Assembly (NCBI GenBank): GCA_964545815.1
Contig: CAZJGR010000002.1
Location: forward strand, 1 to 60,759
Direction of reading: 5' to 3'
Length of the DNA stretch: 60,759 nucleotides
From: an uncultured Dehalococcoidaceae bacterium
GTDB lineage: Bacteria; Chloroflexota; Dehalococcoidia; Dehalococcoidales; RBG-16-60-22
The notes beneath the pieces were generated by a model, which was not told the origin of the DNA, made no database searches, and was given only the letters and a program-made list of their open reading frames with translations. The translations under genes and the position numbers were made by a program. Positions 6,902-58,564 of the stretch are shown here, in pieces; position 1 is the stretch's first letter, and every line of letters begins with the position of its first letter.

Positions 6902-6920
6902 GCCTACCTAACAGGTAGGC
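6902..6920. repeat. inner palindrome GCCTACCT-AAC-AGGTAGGC
   Basis: Exact 8-bp arms. Contains the stop codon of gene 6904..7470. Confidence 0.9.
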
Positions 6921-7470
6921 AGGCAGGGAGCCAGAAGACCGGCCCCCAACGCTTGAGAGACTTGACCTTGCTGAAAAACAGGTCGGCGGGTATCATCGCT
7001 GCGGACATACTCCTCTCTGGCAGCAGACCATAAACCGTCTGCCACGAGGCCGAGAAGCCGACCAGCCATTGATGGTTACAGAGAACGGCGAGGTCGTCCA
7101 TGGTGTAGTTAGGGATTTTGACTTTGACCGTCTCTGCCAGCTCGCAGAACGGCTTCAGAAGCCCATCCCAATCTAGCCGGGAGCGGGCAGACAAAGACCG
7201 CAGCCATTTACTAAGGGCACAACGCTGGTCCTCCGCATACTCCACACCGAGAATCCACCCCTTACCTTGATGCCATTCACCTACCAGCGGATGGATGGTA
7301 ACGCTCCTGGCTATGATAGCGTGATTGACCGTGGCGATGACATCACCGGAGCCGCCCACGCCCACGACTATCCCATTGGCCAGTCGTCGGCTTATACCAT
7401 AGTCTCGCCGTTCGTACCAGAGAGTGTCACCTGTGACGATGACCCCATTGACTGTTAGCTCTTGGGGCAT
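6904..7470 (-). CDS. hypothetical protein (188 aa)
   Basis: ATG 7470 behind AAAGGAGG. The C-terminus ...PACLPVR-stop is encoded by the palindromic element. Confidence 0.65.
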   Translation of the reverse strand: MPQELTVNGVIVTGDTLWYERRDYGISRRLANGIVVGVGGSGDVIATVNHAIIARSVTIHPLVGEWHQGKGWILGVEYAEDQRCALSKWLRSLSARSRLDWDGLLKPFCELAETVKVKIPNYTMDDLAVLCNHQWLVGFSASWQTVYGLLPERSMSAAMIPADLFFSKVKSLKRWGPVFWLPACLPVR

Positions 7471-14071: not shown

Positions 14072-14102
14072 TGCACACCTCCTTGATTTTGGATTAGAAC
14101 TG

Positions 14103-14154
14103 CCCCTTGCGGACTTTGCCTGCCTGTGGCAGACAGGTCAAAATCCGCAAGGGG
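14103..14154. repeat. CCCCTTGCGGACTTTG...CAAAATCCGCAAGGGG hairpin, copy 1
   Basis: 16-bp arms with one mismatch. The loop carries CCTGCCTGTGGCAGACAGG. Confidence 0.9.
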
Positions 14155-14168
14155 CAGGCCTGAGCCTG

Positions 14169-14543
14169 CTATCGAATCTGCGCACCTCCTGTGACCTTTC
14201 TGCGATACGCGGCATCTTGGCCGCTCAGTTCGTACTTTTCATATCGCAATTGCCTTTCTGATTTTTCGGGAAGGCCGCAGGCTGCTAAAGCCATAGTGGC
14301 TAGCTCGACGCATTGGGCCTTCACGACTTCCTGTAACCAGGCGCTGCCCGTATGGCTCTCAAGGACCGTCTTCCACTCGTCCATGATGCGGGGCAATTCC
14401 GCCTTCAGCGTTTCCCTGATAGCCGCCGTTAGTTTTTCCAACTCAGCGGTGGCCATCTTTGACGGTTGGGCTACCCCCTGCTGTTGGAGGATGATCCCGG
14501 CGGCCTTGATTGTACCTTCACACAACACCGTAATCGCGTCCAT
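14169..14543 (-). CDS. hypothetical helical protein (124 aa)
   Basis: ATG 14543 behind the conserved CAAGGAGGGTATTACA leader. Confidence 0.65.
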   Translation of the reverse strand: MDAITVLCEGTIKAAGIILQQQGVAQPSKMATAELEKLTAAIRETLKAELPRIMDEWKTVLESHTGSAWLQEVVKAQCVELATMALAACGLPEKSERQLRYEKYELSGQDAAYRRKVTGGAQIR

Positions 14544-14581
14544 TGTAATACCCTCCTTGATTTTAGACTAGATTAGAACTG

Positions 14582-14653
14582 CCCCTTGCGGACTTTGCCT
14601 GTCTGCGCCCTGTCTGCCTGACAGGCAGGAGGCAGGTCAAAATCCGCAAGGGG
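14582..14653. repeat. CCCCTTGCGGACTTTG...CAAAATCCGCAAGGGG hairpin, copy 2
   Basis: The loop contains a 34-mer (14603-14636) identical to 17695-17728 inside the FtsK-like gene. Confidence 0.9.
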
Positions 14654-14658
14654 CAGAC

Positions 14659-14907
14659 CTAAACCTGCCCTATCGTATATGACGCGCCGCATGATTCGCA
14701 CGTCACCCGATCCGAATCGCCGTCGGTTTCGAGTCCTAACAACCCCATGACACGCTCGCCGCAATTCGGACACGCAAATCCTGCAGGAACCAGGTCAACT
14801 CGTACGCCATCCACTATCAGCGCATCCGCCTCTTCTAACAAGGCTGTAAACGTGCTTGGCTTTTTCTCCTCAGCCACGACCTCAGACCATCTTTTTCTGC
14901 TACACAT
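14659..14907 (-). CDS. Zn-ribbon protein (82 aa)
   Basis: CPNCG...CESCG. ATG 14907 behind the conserved leader. Confidence 0.65.
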   Translation of the reverse strand: MCSRKRWSEVVAEEKKPSTFTALLEEADALIVDGVRVDLVPAGFACPNCGERVMGLLGLETDGDSDRVTCESCGASYTIGQV

Positions 14908-14942
14908 TGTACCCTCCTTGATTTTAGACTAGATTAGAACTG

Positions 14943-14985
14943 CCCCTTGCGGACTTTGCCATTTTACCGCAAAATCCGTAAGGGG
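14943..14985. repeat. CCCCTTGCGGACTTTG...CAAAATCCGTAAGGGG hairpin, copy 3
   Basis: Same arms with a short loop. Confidence 0.9.
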
Positions 14986-15001
14986 CAGACCTGATCCTGC
15001 C

Positions 15002-17343: not shown

Positions 17344-17409
17344 TCTGGACTTGCCTGCCTGTGGCAGACCTACCTAACAGGTAGGCAGACAGGTCAAGAC
17401 AAGTCCAGA
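17344..17409. repeat. full nested element (TCTGGACTT / AAGTCCAGA around GCCTGCCTG.. and CCTACCT-AAC-AGGTAGG)
   Basis: All three palindrome tiers are present. Overlaps the stop codon of the FtsK-like gene. Confidence 0.9.
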
Positions 17410-18704
17410 CTTTCATCAACTAACTGCTTTTTGACTGTTGCGATCGCGGCCGCAACACGAGGAGGATTGACGTCTGTCCCATACTGTTCGATATGCCACC
17501 TGCGGACCAACCGCTGCGAGCATTCTCCCGACGTCTGTAACTGCGCCTTGATAAAGGCTAACATCTCACTTTCAGCGATTGCACCAGGCCGACCAGGCCC
17601 GGGCATCGCCAAGACCTCCCGCAGTTCCTTTTCATCGCCCGAACCTGACCCCGGCTCCTTAACCGCGTGACATTCGACCCGCAAGCCGGCCTGCCTGCGC
17701 CCTGTCTGCCTGACAGGCAGGAGGCAGGCAAGATCGCTTTCGTGAACCAGAGCAGCCTTGAAGCGTGTTTTCTGCCCCTGGTGGACGACTAGCATGTCGC
17801 CCAACCCCAGGAGCCTTTCAGCGTTCGAACCCGGCACGCCTAGAGCGATAGAAGCTTCTGCCGCCGAGTTGACTGCCCCGCTGATCCGGACCGGAAAGTT
17901 AGCTCGCATAAGACCGGCCACAACATCGGCGGATGGCCTCTGCGTCGCAATAATGCAATGTATGCCGGCCTCACGCCCACGCTGCACCAGGCGAGCCAGA
18001 CCCACCTCGACAGGATGACCTCCTACCATGACGAGGTCCGCCACCTCGTCCACGAACAGATACAACGCAGGACGATTGAACCCCTGCCTATCCCGCCGCT
18101 CCAGAGTTTGCAGCAAATGTGTCAGAAGCCCTGTAGCCGACTGCGCATCCTTGCAGCAATCCTCCACCCCCCGCAAACTTGACAGCCCGGCCAACTTGCG
18201 GCCCTTGGGGTCCACGAGGAGAAACCTGGCGTCCTGGACTTTTGACCACAAGACCAGAGAAACCAGCATGGTACACAGAAGCTCTGTCTTCCCTGAGCCT
18301 GTCATGCCGCTTACCAAAGCGTGCGCTGCCGTTGGACTGGACATACACAACAAAAGAGGTACACCTCGATTTGACAGGCCCAGGAGCGCGCTTTGCCCAG
18401 GAGGAGCGCTTTTGAACCGGGTGATTACCTGGTTGAAGGGCACCGAAACCCCATCACTACGGGGGACCTCGATGATCACCCCATCGGGCTGGCTGTTGAC
18501 AATAATTTTAGGGACTTGAAGGGACAACGCAATCTCACGATTAAGACCTTCCAGCTCTCGAACCCGCCGCCCTCGGCCCAACTGAACACGATAGCAAACC
18601 ACCTGCGGCAAGATCTCCCCACCCAGGATGCGAACTGCTATCCCGTAGTCTTTGAGAACCTCTTCGAGTCGGTTTGACTGTAGCTCCAAAAGCCTTCTAT
18701 CCAT
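17394..18704 (-). CDS. soluble FtsK/SpoIIIE/TraB-like dsDNA translocase
   Basis: GMTGSGKTE Walker A, LFVDEVADL Walker B, IIATQRPSADVV, LLGLGDMLV. No TM segment. A ~100-aa C-terminal domain follows an in-frame palindromic element. Confidence 0.9.
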   Translation of the reverse strand: MDRRLLELQSNRLEEVLKDYGIAVRILGGEILPQVVCYRVQLGRGRRVRELEGLNREIALSLQVPKIIVNSQPDGVIIEVPRSDGVSVPFNQVITRFKSAPPGQSALLGLSNRGVPLLLCMSSPTAAHALVSGMTGSGKTELLCTMLVSLVLWSKVQDARFLLVDPKGRKLAGLSSLRGVEDCCKDAQSATGLLTHLLQTLERRDRQGFNRPALYLFVDEVADLVMVGGHPVEVGLARLVQRGREAGIHCIIATQRPSADVVAGLMRANFPVRISGAVNSAAEASIALGVPGSNAERLLGLGDMLVVHQGQKTRFKAALVHESDLACLLPVRQTGRRQAGLRVECHAVKEPGSGSGDEKELREVLAMPGPGRPGAIAESEMLAFIKAQLQTSGECSQRLVRRWHIEQYGTDVNPPRVAAAIATVKKQLVDESLDLS

Positions 18705-20576: not shown

Positions 20577-20616
20577 CTCCTACCTGCGCCCTGTCTCCTG
20601 CCTGCGCAGGTAGGAG
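20577..20616. repeat. 13-bp perfect hairpin CTCCTACCTGCGC...GCGCAGGTAGGAG
   Basis: Arms at 20577-20589 and 20604-20616. A second 10-bp hairpin follows at 20628-20651. Confidence 0.9.
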
Positions 20617-20654
20617 GCAGGGAAGACCAGGGCCCCACGCCTGGGGCCCTGACC

Positions 20655-25784: not shown

Positions 25785-26096
25785 ATGGACCTGAGTATTG
25801 GAGGCATCCCTATCATGGCCGTCATCGTAGGCCTGATTGAGTACCTCAAGAAAGACATTGGAGTGCCGGCCGCACTTTGCCCTGCCTTGAGCATGATCAT
25901 GGGGGTATGCGCAGGCATTGGAAACGAGTTCTTGAAGGCCTGGCCGGTTACCCCTGACTTGCCCGCGCTGATCACCGGCGCAATCGTTGGCCTGGCCCTG
26001 GGTATGGCTGCCACCGGACTTTACAAGGTGGCTATGAAGGTATCAGGTAACGGGAGCCGCCCTGCTTTACAAGGTGGCTATGAAGGTATCAGGTAA
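25785..26096 (+). CDS. holin-like small membrane protein
   Basis: 2-3 TM segments. GLALGMAATGLYKV. The 3' end lies in a 46-bp tandem duplication. Confidence 0.6.
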   Translation: MDLSIGGIPIMAVIVGLIEYLKKDIGVPAALCPALSMIMGVCAGIGNEFLKAWPVTPDLPALITGAIVGLALGMAATGLYKVAMKVSGNGSRPALQGGYEGIR

Positions 26097-26111
26097 CGGG
26101 AGCCGCCCTGC
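26020..26111. repeat. perfect 46-bp tandem duplication
   Basis: 26020-26065 is identical to 26066-26111 (TTTACAAGGTGGCTATGAAGGTATCAGGTAACGGGAGCCGCCCTGC). Confidence 0.95.
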
Positions 26112-28497: not shown

Positions 28498-29556
28498 ATG
28501 ACCTGGAAACCTTTTTCAGCCCTGCCTAACTACTATGGTGGGAAGCGCCGCCTGGTCCCTGTTATATTTCGGGAAATCGCCAGAATCTACCCGCCCCGAA
28601 CCTGGCCGGGCCTGACCCTTCTGGACCCCTTCATGGGCGCGGGCAGTGTTAGTCTGTACGCCAAAGCCCAGGGATTCAATGTCCTGGCCAATGACTACGC
28701 CTGGCGCTGCTACCAAATCGGACAGGGCATCATCGAGAACAATGGCCGTACCCTGACTGACGAAGACCTGAGTTTGCTTTTACGGGAGGCAGGAGGTTAT
28801 GACCACTTTGTGGAAAACCACTATGTGCCTCACACCTTCTCTCCCAGGCTGGCGCGTGAACTGGACCTCGCCCTGGCCAATATCAGACAGGAAGAGAGAG
28901 AGGAACACCACGACGCGCTTTTGTATGCTACCCTGATTCGATTGATGCTGATCAACCGCATCGGCGGCCAGATGACTAACCGGGCCTGGATGACCAATAT
29001 CTCCACCGGCAACTTTGATGCCCTGACGCCGGGCCAGACCTCGACTCGCGGAGGATGGACTCAATCCCTGGCCCAACGCTTGCGCACCTTGCAGACCTAT
29101 ATTAACCGGGCGATCTTCGCCGGCCGCGCCCAAGTTTTCCAGGAGGACGCTTTCGCCTGGCTCCCTGAACAGCAGGGGGACATCGTTTACCTGGACCCGC
29201 CTTACAGCGGCTCGACCGCGTATGAAAGCACCTACTACCACCTGGATTGCATCCTGGCCGGTCGTAAATTGCCCTATTCAGGCCCCAGCCCGTTTAATAG
29301 ACCGGCCACGGCCTGGAACAGCCTGTGCGCCATGTTTGCCGTCGTCGAGCACATCCCTACCTGGATATTTTCATTCGCCGACCAGGTAGGAGCGTTCACG
29401 GCTCAACAGTTATGCGATCTTATTGCCCAATTCGGGCGCAAACCCCGAGTTGTGCCTTTACGCCATCAGTGGTCCATGAACATGGCCGGTGACCATTACG
29501 ACACCGGAGCCAAAGAACTTCTGATCATCGCTCCTGCCTGCCTACCTAATAGGTAG
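28498..29556 (+). CDS. N6-adenine DNA methyltransferase, Dam/D12-class-like (copy 2, paralog of 24418..25455)
   Basis: NYYGGKRRL, DPFMGAGS, VYLDPPYS. The first ~60 residues are near-identical to copy 1. The C-terminal PACLPNR-stop is encoded by a palindromic element. Confidence 0.85.
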   Translation: MTWKPFSALPNYYGGKRRLVPVIFREIARIYPPRTWPGLTLLDPFMGAGSVSLYAKAQGFNVLANDYAWRCYQIGQGIIENNGRTLTDEDLSLLLREAGGYDHFVENHYVPHTFSPRLARELDLALANIRQEEREEHHDALLYATLIRLMLINRIGGQMTNRAWMTNISTGNFDALTPGQTSTRGGWTQSLAQRLRTLQTYINRAIFAGRAQVFQEDAFAWLPEQQGDIVYLDPPYSGSTAYESTYYHLDCILAGRKLPYSGPSPFNRPATAWNSLCAMFAVVEHIPTWIFSFADQVGAFTAQQLCDLIAQFGRKPRVVPLRHQWSMNMAGDHYDTGAKELLIIAPACLPNR

Positions 29557-29582: not shown

Positions 29583-31733
29583 ATGGCCGAAGAAGACAAA
29601 AAAATCCTTCAAGAATTTGGGGTATCTCAGGCCGCAATCTGGGCGCTCAGCGGTGAGGAGATTGAAACCGAAGCCGCCCTGCAGGGGACTCAGGGCATCG
29701 CTACCTGGGATGAAATGCGCCGCACAGACCACAACGCAGCCGCTATCATCGCCGGCCTGACCCTGCCCATCCGCCGCGCCTCCTGGACCGTAGAACCAAC
29801 CAGCGAAGAAGATATTGACCAGGAAGCCGCCGAGTTCCTGGAACAGGCTATGGAGGATATGTCTGTCTCCTGGAGCTCAATGATCGTTGATGCCCTGACT
29901 TTTTTCCCGTTTGGTTGGGCCTTCCTGGAACAGGTCATGAAGCGCCGGGACGGCCCAAACCCTGCCGGAAAAGACGCCGCGGCCAGCAAGTACAGCGACG
30001 GCCGCATTGGCTGGCGCAAGATCACCCTCCGGCCGCAGACGTCGCTCGCCTATTGGGTGATAGATGAAAGCGGTGGCATCCAGGGCCTGGCCCAAACCGT
30101 ACCCAAACAGCAAGAGCCGGTCCGCATTCCAATTCAACGCGCCCTGCTGTTCAGAACTACCACTGAGGGCAATTACCCCGAAGGGGTATCCATCTTCAGG
30201 CCCTCCTGGCGACCCTGGCTGCACAGGAAACGCCTGGAGATGGTGGAGGGCATGGCCCTCACCCGCAACCTGGCGGGAATCCTGAAGGTCACCCTCGGGC
30301 CTGGAGCTTCGACCATTCAGGACTCGGGGCAGGAGTCTGACGAGGGCAAAGCCCGGCAGCTAATCAAGGATGCTTATAATGACCGCCTGGTGGGTGCCGT
30401 GGAAACGGAAGCGGTCAAGATCGGTATCCTGGAGGGGCCGAAAGGCACTGACTTTGACGCCCTGACGGCGGCCATCACCCGCAAAGATCACGAGATGGCC
30501 CGCGCCACCCTGGCCCATTTCATTGTCCTGGCCCTCCAGGAACGAGGCAGCTACAGCCTGGCCAAAGACGAATCGGACCTGTTCCTGATGGCCGTCATGG
30601 CCTACCTGGATGCCATGACCGATGTCATCCAGCGATTCGCGGTCGACCGCCTCTTCAGATTAAATATCTTCCCTGGCCTGACTGCGATCCCACAAATACG
30701 GGCCTCGGCCGTCTACAAGCCTGACATCGGAGCAGTGGCCACGGCGGTTAACGATCTGGCCCAGGCCCAAGTCCTGACCATAGACGATAGCCTGGAAGCC
30801 TATATTCGGAGCGTGGCCGGTTTCCCTGAACTGCCGGTGGACATGACCCGCGCCGAACAGGCCAAGAAGAAAGAAGCGATACCAACGAGAAAAACCCCCT
30901 CTTGGGGTGAAGAAGATATAACCGAAAGCATACCCGATGAAGACCTGGAAACCGTCCTGGAGAGCATGGCCAATTACCTGCCTCGCCGTCAGGCAGGTGA
31001 CCCGCTGGCCGGACCGCCACCCAGACTCGGCAAGAAAGCCCGAACCTATAGAGACTCTACCAAACAGTATGAAGCTGACCTGCAGCAAATTTATCGGGAG
31101 TGGGCAGCCGAAGCCGGAGATCTCGACGTCGGCCCCGATACCACCGAGGTCGACCTGGGCGACAAACTGGACGATTACCTGGGAGTCGGCCTTCTCCTCC
31201 TGATGGAGAAAGGCTATCAAGACCTCCTGGCCGCCTACCTGTTAGGCTTTGGCGCCCCCTCGATCGGACCGGAGGGCCTGAAGCTGATCGAGAGCGCTCA
31301 GCAAAAAAATGATACCTACCTGGCCGGGTCTTTGTTTAAGGACATCCGGGGCAAGCTGGACGGCGAGATAGCGGCTATTCTACTACTGCTGAAACAGGGC
31401 CGTGAAGACGACGCTTTCCAGTTAATAGAACGGACCATCCTGACACTGGACTACCGCCTACCGTACTACGGGGGCACTTATTGGGAAATGATCCATGAGG
31501 GCATCGGGATGCGCATCACCGAACGCGGCACAGTTATCGGCCCTCCCGTCCTGCGTTATCTGGACCCCCTGGCCAGACACTGCACCACCTGCCCGCCCAA
31601 GGCCAAACAATACCCATCCTGGGAGGCCATGGTCGCCGAGGCCGGAATTCCGGGCGATGGCTCGGACGAATGTGACGGAAACTGCCGCTGTGGATTCATG
31701 ATCCTATCCCAAGGAGCCTGGATATGGCCTTGA
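29583..31733 (+). CDS. portal protein with C-terminal Cys-rich (MuF/SPP1 gp7-like?) extension
   Basis: Size and position after TerL. C-terminal HCTTCPP...DECDGNCRCGF. Confidence 0.65.
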   Translation: MAEEDKKILQEFGVSQAAIWALSGEEIETEAALQGTQGIATWDEMRRTDHNAAAIIAGLTLPIRRASWTVEPTSEEDIDQEAAEFLEQAMEDMSVSWSSMIVDALTFFPFGWAFLEQVMKRRDGPNPAGKDAAASKYSDGRIGWRKITLRPQTSLAYWVIDESGGIQGLAQTVPKQQEPVRIPIQRALLFRTTTEGNYPEGVSIFRPSWRPWLHRKRLEMVEGMALTRNLAGILKVTLGPGASTIQDSGQESDEGKARQLIKDAYNDRLVGAVETEAVKIGILEGPKGTDFDALTAAITRKDHEMARATLAHFIVLALQERGSYSLAKDESDLFLMAVMAYLDAMTDVIQRFAVDRLFRLNIFPGLTAIPQIRASAVYKPDIGAVATAVNDLAQAQVLTIDDSLEAYIRSVAGFPELPVDMTRAEQAKKKEAIPTRKTPSWGEEDITESIPDEDLETVLESMANYLPRRQAGDPLAGPPPRLGKKARTYRDSTKQYEADLQQIYREWAAEAGDLDVGPDTTEVDLGDKLDDYLGVGLLLLMEKGYQDLLAAYLLGFGAPSIGPEGLKLIESAQQKNDTYLAGSLFKDIRGKLDGEIAAILLLLKQGREDDAFQLIERTILTLDYRLPYYGGTYWEMIHEGIGMRITERGTVIGPPVLRYLDPLARHCTTCPPKAKQYPSWEAMVAEAGIPGDGSDECDGNCRCGFMILSQGAWIWP

Positions 31734-38081: not shown

Positions 38082-38603
38082 ATGTCTAAAAGTGAACGAA
38101 CCCTCAGACTGGTGTCTACCCTGGTGCTGGCCGCCTTGCTGATCGTCACCCTTGGGGGTGGGCTGGCCAGAGGAAGCACCCTGCCTGTCAGGCAGACAGG
38201 TAACCGGCCCGTTGACGAGGTGATCACCTCCCAACCTGCCTCGCCGTCAGGCAGGCAGTTGGCGCCGGAAGCCCAGCGCGCCGCACCTTATGGCCAGTAC
38301 ATTGTCACGCACAACAATGTGAACATCACCTCGACGGCGCAGACGGGCGTGGTTGCCCGCACCTCGGGCTATGACTACCACAAGGCCATTCTCTGCGATG
38401 TGGGTGCGACCGATATCACCGGGACCCTCTATGCCAGAATCTCATCTACAGGAAACGTCTTTACCCTGGCCCAAACCCTCGTCTTTCCGGCCAACACCAG
38501 GACATACAGCGAACAAAATTATATCGCACCCTGGATGACTTTGAGCTTGACCGGTTCGACCGGCTCGACCACCACCTGCGGCATTTGGGTACAGACCCCA
38601 TAA
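38082..38603 (+). CDS. hypothetical protein with N-terminal signal/TM segment (173 aa)
   Basis: AAAGGAG SD. Carries two in-frame CTGCCTG/CAGGCAG palindromes (38181-38195, 38235-38255). Confidence 0.6.
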   Translation: MSKSERTLRLVSTLVLAALLIVTLGGGLARGSTLPVRQTGNRPVDEVITSQPASPSGRQLAPEAQRAAPYGQYIVTHNNVNITSTAQTGVVARTSGYDYHKAILCDVGATDITGTLYARISSTGNVFTLAQTLVFPANTRTYSEQNYIAPWMTLSLTGSTGSTTTCGIWVQTP

Positions 38604-54177: not shown

Positions 54178-54660
54178 ATGGGTATGGTATTAACAGACAC
54201 GCTTCCGGTAGATGCAGGAACCCAAAAATTTGTTGCACCAATTGACTCGACCACAGCCCTATTCGTCCTGCTTCGCGCCCTGAACGTGGAAACGGTTGAT
54301 ACCCTGGACTATGGCGACCAGGGCGTCAGTTTAGGGGCAGGGCAGGGGGCCACCACCCAGACCCATGACGCCGTAACCGTAACCACCGCCGAAAGCGTGG
54401 GAACTCAGGTCATCTCGGCGGGCTATAGCAAGGCCGCCATCTTTGTCGAGGTGGAAGCCGGGGCAGACATAGCCATCACCGTCTATGGCCGCCTGATCAC
54501 GGCCGGAGATAACTACACCCTGGCCATACTGGAGACCCAGGAAGCCTCCAGCCGTCACGTCTATCTAGTGGAGATTGCCTGCCCCTACCTGGCCATCGGA
54601 TTGACCGCCGTGGCCGATAGCGCCGTCTGTTCATGCAGTGTCCACCTGCTACCTGCCTGA
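54178..54660 (+). CDS. hypothetical tail-associated protein (160 aa)
   Basis: Trimmed to ATG 54178 behind GAGAGGA. Confidence 0.6.
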   Translation: MGMVLTDTLPVDAGTQKFVAPIDSTTALFVLLRALNVETVDTLDYGDQGVSLGAGQGATTQTHDAVTVTTAESVGTQVISAGYSKAAIFVEVEAGADIAITVYGRLITAGDNYTLAILETQEASSRHVYLVEIACPYLAIGLTAVADSAVCSCSVHLLPA

Positions 54661-58285: not shown

Positions 58286-58564
58286 TTGCCCATGCCAACA
58301 TCACCATACAATCCTGGAACCTATAGCCGAAAGGATGTAGCCGGCATCCTGGAGCTCACCCGGCATGACCTGGAGTACATCTCGACCCCGCGGTGGGAAG
58401 AGCTTGATGGGAAATCCATCCACGTGCATGACTGGCGGCGATACATTCCCCCCCCCGTAAAGACGCTATGGCCCCGCCTGGCCTGGGAAACAAGAACCGT
58501 TGCCTACTATCTGGCACAACTGGCCGCCGAGGCCGAGGAGCCTGCCTTGCCAGCAGGCAGGTAG
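58286..58564 (+). CDS. hypothetical protein (92 aa)
   Basis: AAAGGAG SD. The C-terminus and stop come from a CCTGCC...GGCAGGTAG palindrome. Confidence 0.6.
   Translation: MPMPTSPYNPGTYSRKDVAGILELTRHDLEYISTPRWEELDGKSIHVHDWRRYIPPPVKTLWPRLAWETRTVAYYLAQLAAEAEEPALPAGR

Follow-up and report, generated by a model that had tools for sequence, protein, structure and literature searches.

Palindromic repeats taken up in frame by protein genes are best known from Rickettsia. The stretch of DNA analyzed here (60,759 nt, referred to below as the window) raises the question of how a palindromic module came to lie in frame within a phage gene for an FtsK/SpoIIIE-like ATPase, and why it has persisted there. 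The gene, the module, and two related intergenic copies are as follows.

17394..18704, minus strand: FtsK/SpoIIIE-like ATPase gene, 436 aa, with an alpha-beta motor, a disordered linker, and a helical C-terminal domain
17689..17728, minus strand: 40-nt hairpin module in frame in the FtsK-like gene, encoding residues 326-339, ACLLPVRQTGRRQA
14597..14636, minus strand: intergenic twin of the 40-nt module (39/40), at the tip of the cassette 2 hairpin
20578..20617, no strand assigned: diverged third family member, intergenic, 65% identical, with GACAGGGCGCAGG in common

The initial annotation had reported an exact 34-mer shared between the FtsK-like gene and an intergenic hairpin. This identity was confirmed, with the intergenic copy forming the apex of a 91-nt hairpin. 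The window contains exactly two occurrences of the 34-mer (CTGCGCCCTGTCTGCCTGACAGGCAGGAGGCAGG), at 14603-14636 and 17695-17728, and 0 occurrences were expected from shuffled sequences, even with 3 mismatches allowed. The true common unit is 40 nt long, and its sole mismatch (T at 14602, C at 17694) is synonymous in the FtsK-like gene (AGA versus AGG, Arg337). Among all exact repeats 20 nt or longer, this pair was the longest dispersed repeat to involve the interior of a coding region, and while its two copies agree at 39 of 40 positions, other members of the module family are only 65 to 85% alike. Judged from these comparisons, the near-identity, the chance expectation of zero, and the lone synonymous difference argue for the 40-nt segment being a recent copy.

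The host open reading frame is intact, with the element in frame, and has Pfam matches to FtsK_alpha (PF17854) and FtsK_SpoIIIE (PF01580). Walker motifs GSGKT and DE(V/L)AD are conserved in the homologue alignment, as expected of an FtsK/SpoIIIE ATPase, and the predicted structure matches the FtsK motor structures 6t8g and 2iut in Foldseek (E about 1e-28). The AlphaFold (AF2) model has a mean pLDDT of 87.8, falling below 50 at residues 333-353. The element begins at the end of a short helix (residues 322-328) and continues into this disordered tether, so that structure prediction bears out its proposed placement in an inter-domain linker. The C-terminal domain, first described as about 100 aa, is closer to 80 aa (helices 355-433, with the signature PGRP...CSQR..WH..DVNPPR), and no Pfam match to FtsK gamma was found in it. 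The element sits where FtsK-type motors tether the motor to a small DNA-binding domain, as in the FtsK beta-gamma linker, but the domain tethered here is a different helical one. Two other accounts of this region were examined and set aside. An earlier gene fusion, in which the hairpin once lay between the motor gene and a separate HTH gene, was rejected because 24 of 24 homologues are already fused. A possible internal start for the C-terminal domain (17604-17622, GGAGG-N8-ATG, Met367) is probably no real start, as the Met is not conserved in the 24 homologues.

Comparison with homologues separated the element from the conserved parts of the protein. The set comprised 24 FtsK-like sequences of 395 to 458 aa, the closest 44 to 53% identical (best about 51%), and the C-terminal domain is kept in all of them except P0025, a C-terminally truncated sequence. 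It had been stated beforehand that an ancestral linker would appear in orthologues as the same peptide with synonymous drift; the peptide was found in 0 of 24 homologues. Measured between the invariant landmarks RF(Q/K) and GRP, the linker is hypervariable, spanning 39 to 50 aa in the homologues; at 55 aa, that of the window exceeds all others in the set of 25, and subtracting codons 326 to 339 leaves 41 aa. Absence from all homologues and the longest linker agree with the insertion that had first been proposed, but with the nearest relative only about 51% identical, the linker does not align base by base and no clean empty site is seen. Because 40 is not a multiple of 3, a simple insertion would need 2 extra bases or 1 fewer. 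The first four element codons (ACLL) also fit a helix end, DLxxLL, that is conserved in the homologues, and part of the element may be ancestral, or the event may have been a replacement or overwriting of similar sequence instead of a pure insertion.

Five related loci that keep the FtsK-DUF488 gene order (L001, L003, L006, L007, and L008) were also compared at the DNA level. None of the five carries a dispersed repeat in its FtsK linker, and only 0 to 1 twelve-mers are common to the linker and the rest of the same locus, versus 35 in the window. The window had no nucleotide match in the phage collection, viral_contigs held no relative by protein search or by 28-mer or 21-mer, and the 34-mer was absent from metagenome_contigs.

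The intergenic twin lies in one of three successive intergenic cassettes on the minus strand, here the strand of the mRNA. The same outer stem (CTGCCCCTTGCGGATTTTG / CAAAGTCCGCAAGGGGCAG) recurs in all three, as do a leader and the ribosome-binding site AAGGAGG.

14072..14168, minus strand: cassette 1, same stem and leader with a 19-nt tip, CCTGTCTGCCACAGGCAGG; -51.4 kcal/mol, z -9.0
14544..14658, minus strand: cassette 2, same stem with a 40-nt tip, leader, and AAGGAGG; 91-nt hairpin at -58.3 kcal/mol, z -7.3
14908..15001, minus strand: cassette 3, same stem and leader with an 11-nt loop, without a CCTG module; -36 kcal/mol, z -6.3

Cassettes 2 and 3 share a 51-nt exact repeat. Since three cassettes with one outer stem carry tips of 19, 40, and 11 nt, the tip behaves as a swappable module. 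No promoter-like or terminator-like site was predicted at 14072-15001 or 17689-17728, and no Rfam family was found for the window hairpins, which returned only sub-threshold miRNA-like hairpin matches. Analogous cassettes, each a long hairpin followed by a GGCAGTTCAAATCC leader and AAGGAGG, are present in a related phage (L003:13900-19300) with different stem sequences; in that comparison the punctuation architecture is kept and the stem sequence turns over.

Repeated intergenic stem-loop cassettes inside a phage genome recall the PeSLs of T4-type phages, which are substrates for recombination and modular shuffling (PMC2839356, PMC4122927). PeSLs, however, join a strong sigma-70 early promoter to a terminator stem-loop, whereas neither a promoter nor a U-tract terminator was predicted here, and PeSLs are not reported inside open reading frames.

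Taken with the homologue comparison, these cassettes point to an origin for the genic segment. It is probably a recent DNA-level copy of a hairpin tip module into a tolerant FtsK linker, where it is likely a passenger. The source would be one tip module of the phage's nested (CCTG)n/(CAGG)n hairpin family, and the copy would have landed in, or overwritten part of, the disordered linker of hypervariable sequence that joins motor and C-terminal domain. The direction would run from intergenic region to gene. The opposite, in which the linker evolved in place within FtsK (for example, by quasi-palindrome correction) and was then exported to the cassette 2 tip, is quite unlikely. The fit of the first element codons to DLxxLL, the more perfect palindrome of the FtsK copy, and the clearly swappable slot at the cassette tip would all suit such an export. 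They are outweighed by the construction of the module, which resembles dozens of intergenic family members, by the recurrence of its 21-nt core in a second phage gene and in bacterial intergenic repeats (see below), and by the lack of anything similar in the linker of any homologue. A repeat-induced mis-join during assembly, which would have created one of the two copies, seems extremely improbable. The window is a metagenomic contig, and no sequencing reads were found to map on it; still, the context of each copy was checked independently: the genic copy is flanked by a motor and a C-terminal domain that share one frame and both have homology to relatives, and the outer stem of the cassette is intact on both sides of the intergenic one.

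The same pattern recurs in gp38082 and the portal gene.

38180..38200, plus strand: exact 21-nt module core CCTGCCTGTCAGGCAGACAGG in gp38082 (reading LPVRQTG), located in the linker that follows the signal/TM segment
38234..38255, plus strand: second gp38082 palindrome, ACCTGCCTCGCCGTCAGGCAGG, read PASPSGRQ
30976..30997, plus strand: exact 22-nt twin of 38234-38255 in the portal gene, read in another frame as LPRRQAG, in the acidic, variable linker that follows Portal_Mu

The 21-mer in gp38082 matches the core of the FtsK element exactly. Both gp38082 palindromes had been described as encoding LPVRQTG; this holds for the first, but the second reads PASPSGRQ. Because one 22-mer is read in two frames in two genes, the repeat is a DNA entity and not a peptide motif, and the presence of LPVRQTG in two proteins reflects nothing more than the repeat DNA that encodes it. 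Repeat-encoded segments of this kind should not be counted as conserved peptide motifs in annotation. In the only relative of gp38082 (P0122, locus L005, 66% identical), the segment before the domain is 18 aa shorter and lacks the palindromes. The portal linker after Portal_Mu is 66 aa long, versus 24 to 55 aa in 17 relatives (63 to 66% identical), and a 12-residue insert found only in the window adjoins the palindrome. In all three genes with an embedded module (FtsK-like, gp38082, and portal), the linker is the longest among relatives.

The sequence of the repeats offers a reason for which modules enter genes. (CCTG)n/(CAGG)n is free of stop codons in every frame, and the modules located inside genes have 5 of 6 frames open, while the CCTACCT..AGGTAGG module and composites have only 2 of 6. 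Stop-free frames thus act as a simple selective filter, which explains why genes hold only CCTG-type modules. This suggests that intergenic hairpin families can seed new variable linkers in phage proteins, with stop-free tetranucleotide repeats pre-adapted to this role.

Rickettsia palindromic elements (RPEs), with which the segment had been compared, are dispersed palindromic repeats that lie in frame inside unrelated protein genes and add a peptide without destroying the protein (MITE review, PMC10969869). The comparison holds for the outcome, as palindromic DNA is tolerated in frame, within a disordered linker, in an otherwise conserved open reading frame. It does not extend to size or family: RPEs are about 100 to 150 bp and belong to defined Rickettsia families, whereas the units here are 21 to 40 nt, reside in a phage, and have no sequence relationship to RPEs. 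Each RPE family also encodes one conserved peptide, unlike the 22-mer read here as both LPRRQAG and PASPSGRQ. Here the same outcome is seen in a tailed phage with REP-sized, stop-free units.

The embedded copies belong to a family that extends across the window. Nested GC-rich hairpins of CCTG/CAGG repeats fill most intergenic gaps, with outer arms CTGGACTT/AAGTCCAG or the cassette stem and inner units CCTGCCTG..CAGGCAGG and CCTACCTG..CAGGTAGG. Perfect hairpins with a stem of at least 8 bp number 38, versus 8.2 in shuffles; intergenic positions account for 20 of the 38. Another exact long pair (41 nt, at 29533 and 48138) is present, and such further pairs indicate that copying or homogenization is ongoing. 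Several genes end inside hairpin modules (6904-6927, 29533-29556, 54653-54660, and 58540-58564), with their last residues (e.g., ...LPACLP and ...LPAGR*) and stop codons encoded by repeat DNA. A tandem duplication at 26019-26111, in which 47 nt are directly and exactly repeated at an offset of 46 nt, covers the 3' end of gene 25785-26096 and extends into the next hairpin.

The heptamer CTGCCTG occurs 72 times on both strands, versus 13.9 +/- 3.5 expected, a 5-fold over-representation, and by a rough gene map half of its copies fall in the non-coding 13.6% of the window. Such enrichment could mean that CTGCCTG/CAGGCAG are sites for a DNA-binding protein, such as a KOPS/SRS/clt-like guide for the motor's own C-terminal domain, with the genic copy acting as a cis site. 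In Streptomyces plasmids, clt lies near traB, and the C-terminal helical domain of this motor is DNA-binding-like in the predicted model. We nevertheless consider such a role very unlikely. The heptamers are divided 38 versus 34 between strands, with a similar split in both arms, and KOPS-like polarity was rejected for lack of strand skew. The motifs are mainly paired as hairpin arms, and relatives with the same C-terminal domain show no heptamer enrichment. Heptamer density is 0.15 to 0.46 per kb in the related loci versus 1.18 per kb in the window, and because it is so much lower in those loci, the CCTG-type family has expanded in this lineage only.

Another possibility is that the hairpin in the FtsK mRNA is functional as RNA (in RNase III-type processing, as a ribosome pause between motor and C-terminal domain, or as an attenuator of downstream genes), having been recruited from the cassettes and kept by selection. 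Placement of the cassettes between genes, as processing sites are placed, is compatible with this, as is folding of the genic 40-mer at -24 kcal/mol on the mRNA strand versus -17.2 kcal/mol for the intergenic 40-mer. The genic copy is more stable because the single base difference completes the outer stem; the 41-nt genic unit reaches -28.9 kcal/mol with an 8-bp outer stem (GCCTGCCT/AGGCAGGC). The z score of the genic 40-mer alone is only -2.4, however, and the 40-nt tip is present in just one of three cassettes, so that it is not needed for cassette function. Four of the five related loci have no notable linker hairpin, and the stable hairpin at the start of the linker in the fifth is unrelated.

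A strand comparison of the leftward (1-23100) and rightward (23400-60759) parts of the window bears on the same question. In intergenic hairpins of the leftward operons, folding is stronger on the sense strand in 21 of 28 cases (Wilcoxon p 0.004), and in 17 of 20 among strong gaps (MFE below -15 kcal/mol), but in only about half of rightward gaps. The leftward bias could stem from selection on RNA in early operons or from strand composition, and its absence from the rightward half counts against the RNA reading. While an RNA-level function of the intergenic hairpins is plausible, selection for an RNA function of the FtsK copy is unlikely. Under the favored reading as a copied tip module, persistence would most likely be that of a passenger: the encoded peptide would be neutral, the linker would tolerate any flexible peptide, and the motor and C-terminal domain would stay in frame.

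How the copy was made can be narrowed by what accompanies it. The repeat family had been proposed to be recently mobile. Recent copying fits the 39/40 identity, but the mobility may be ectopic templated copying and not transposition. No transposase, HUH, or RAYT was found in 48 window open reading frames scanned with Pfam (about 27 small open reading frames and the host genome were outside the scan); the 48 include an integrase, RusA, an exonuclease, and a DnaC-like loader. Flanks of the two 40-nt copies differ and contain no target-site duplication beyond a 4-nt CAAG that could be due to chance, and neither copy has terminal inverted repeats. MITEs are defined by terminal inverted repeats and target-site duplications at 50 to 500 bp, a description that a 40-nt unit with neither does not fit. 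Because no transposase was found among the scanned reading frames and target-site duplication and terminal inverted repeats are lacking, ectopic templated copying is favored over transposition. As the phage replicates, one dispersed hairpin would serve as template for another through short homology, or the two would undergo gene conversion.

Canonical REP/REPIN elements also offer a likeness, being short (20 to 40 nt), imperfect, GC-rich palindromes in multiple copies, mostly extragenic and near gene ends, as are the modules here. The modules differ in beginning with (G)CCTG and lacking the GT[AG]G head (no GTAG or GTGG), in the absence of the RAYT that mobilizes REPs among the 48 scanned open reading frames, and in residing in a phage genome with some copies within coding sequence. 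The feature is real, lineage specific, and recently copied, like RPEs in outcome yet distinct from RPEs, MITEs, canonical REPs, and PeSLs.

Of further interest is a possible bacterial source for the modules. Matches to the 21-nt core numbered 37 stretches in genome_contigs and 27 in metagenome_contigs, with none in viral_contigs; a control 21-mer from another phage module (CCTACCTAACAGGTAGGCAGG) had 0 matches in genome_contigs. A separate 20-mer (GCCTGCCTGCGACAGGCAGG) was treated as a generic hairpin, since 28 unrelated genomes without homology to the phage have a single copy apiece. At least 4 core copies each were present in three MAGs, Kiritimatiellae M55B167, Kiritimatiellia BLK5-3.bin.166, and Lentisphaeraceae SRP067234_co1_252. 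Kiritimatiellia and Lentisphaeria belong to the PVC superphylum (Planctomycetota-Verrucomicrobiota-Chlamydiota and allies). In these MAGs the core forms part of a conserved nested hairpin of about 60 nt, present in multiple intergenic copies (GCCGCCTGTCTGCG-CCTGCCTGTCAGGCAGACAGG-TGCGTACGCACAGGCAGGCAACC, -33 kcal/mol), mostly located just upstream of unrelated housekeeping genes (L040, L060, L067, L069, L049, L052, L056, L071, L048, L061, L066, and L070, with further loci at L082, L084, L091, L093, and L097). No Rfam family was found for these loci, and the nested hairpin looks like an undescribed REP-like repeat.

Alignment of the phage 40-mer with the PVC element extends beyond the core, through an outer arm CCTGYCT and then ..GCRCAGRCAGGCAA, and local alignment scores of the right flank against the phage average 8.1 to 8.7 for PVC copies versus 4.7 to 5.0 for all other matches. 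As a sequence match, this is a lead, not proof, concerning module origin and host clade, and it provides a testable host clue for an uncultured phage lineage otherwise without one. A portal profile search of genome_contigs returned no prophage relatives, and an FtsK profile search returned only cellular FtsK at about 30% identity. It is conceivable, though rather doubtful, that the phage modules derive from REP-like intergenic repeats of a bacterial host clade (with PVC as the candidate, given the shared core and nested-hairpin layout), have since expanded, and are still copied by host machinery or phage recombination. If so, bacterial repeats would build linker segments of at least three phage proteins, and the phage would be both a colonized target and a possible vehicle of a bacterial repeat family.

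Similar repeats were encountered in two other bacterial settings. A Gammaproteobacteria MAG (OZ251218.1, L021:140-1070) contains six CCTGCCTGCTGCAGGCAGG-type palindromes in about 1 kb, at irregular spacings of 125 to 251 nt, forming a local group of REP-like hairpins. In the WOR-3 MAG JZ-2, the 21-mer lies at or near five contig ends with identical flanks (L038, L042, L050, L064, and L073), and resembles the terminus of a repeated IS-like element at which the assembly breaks.
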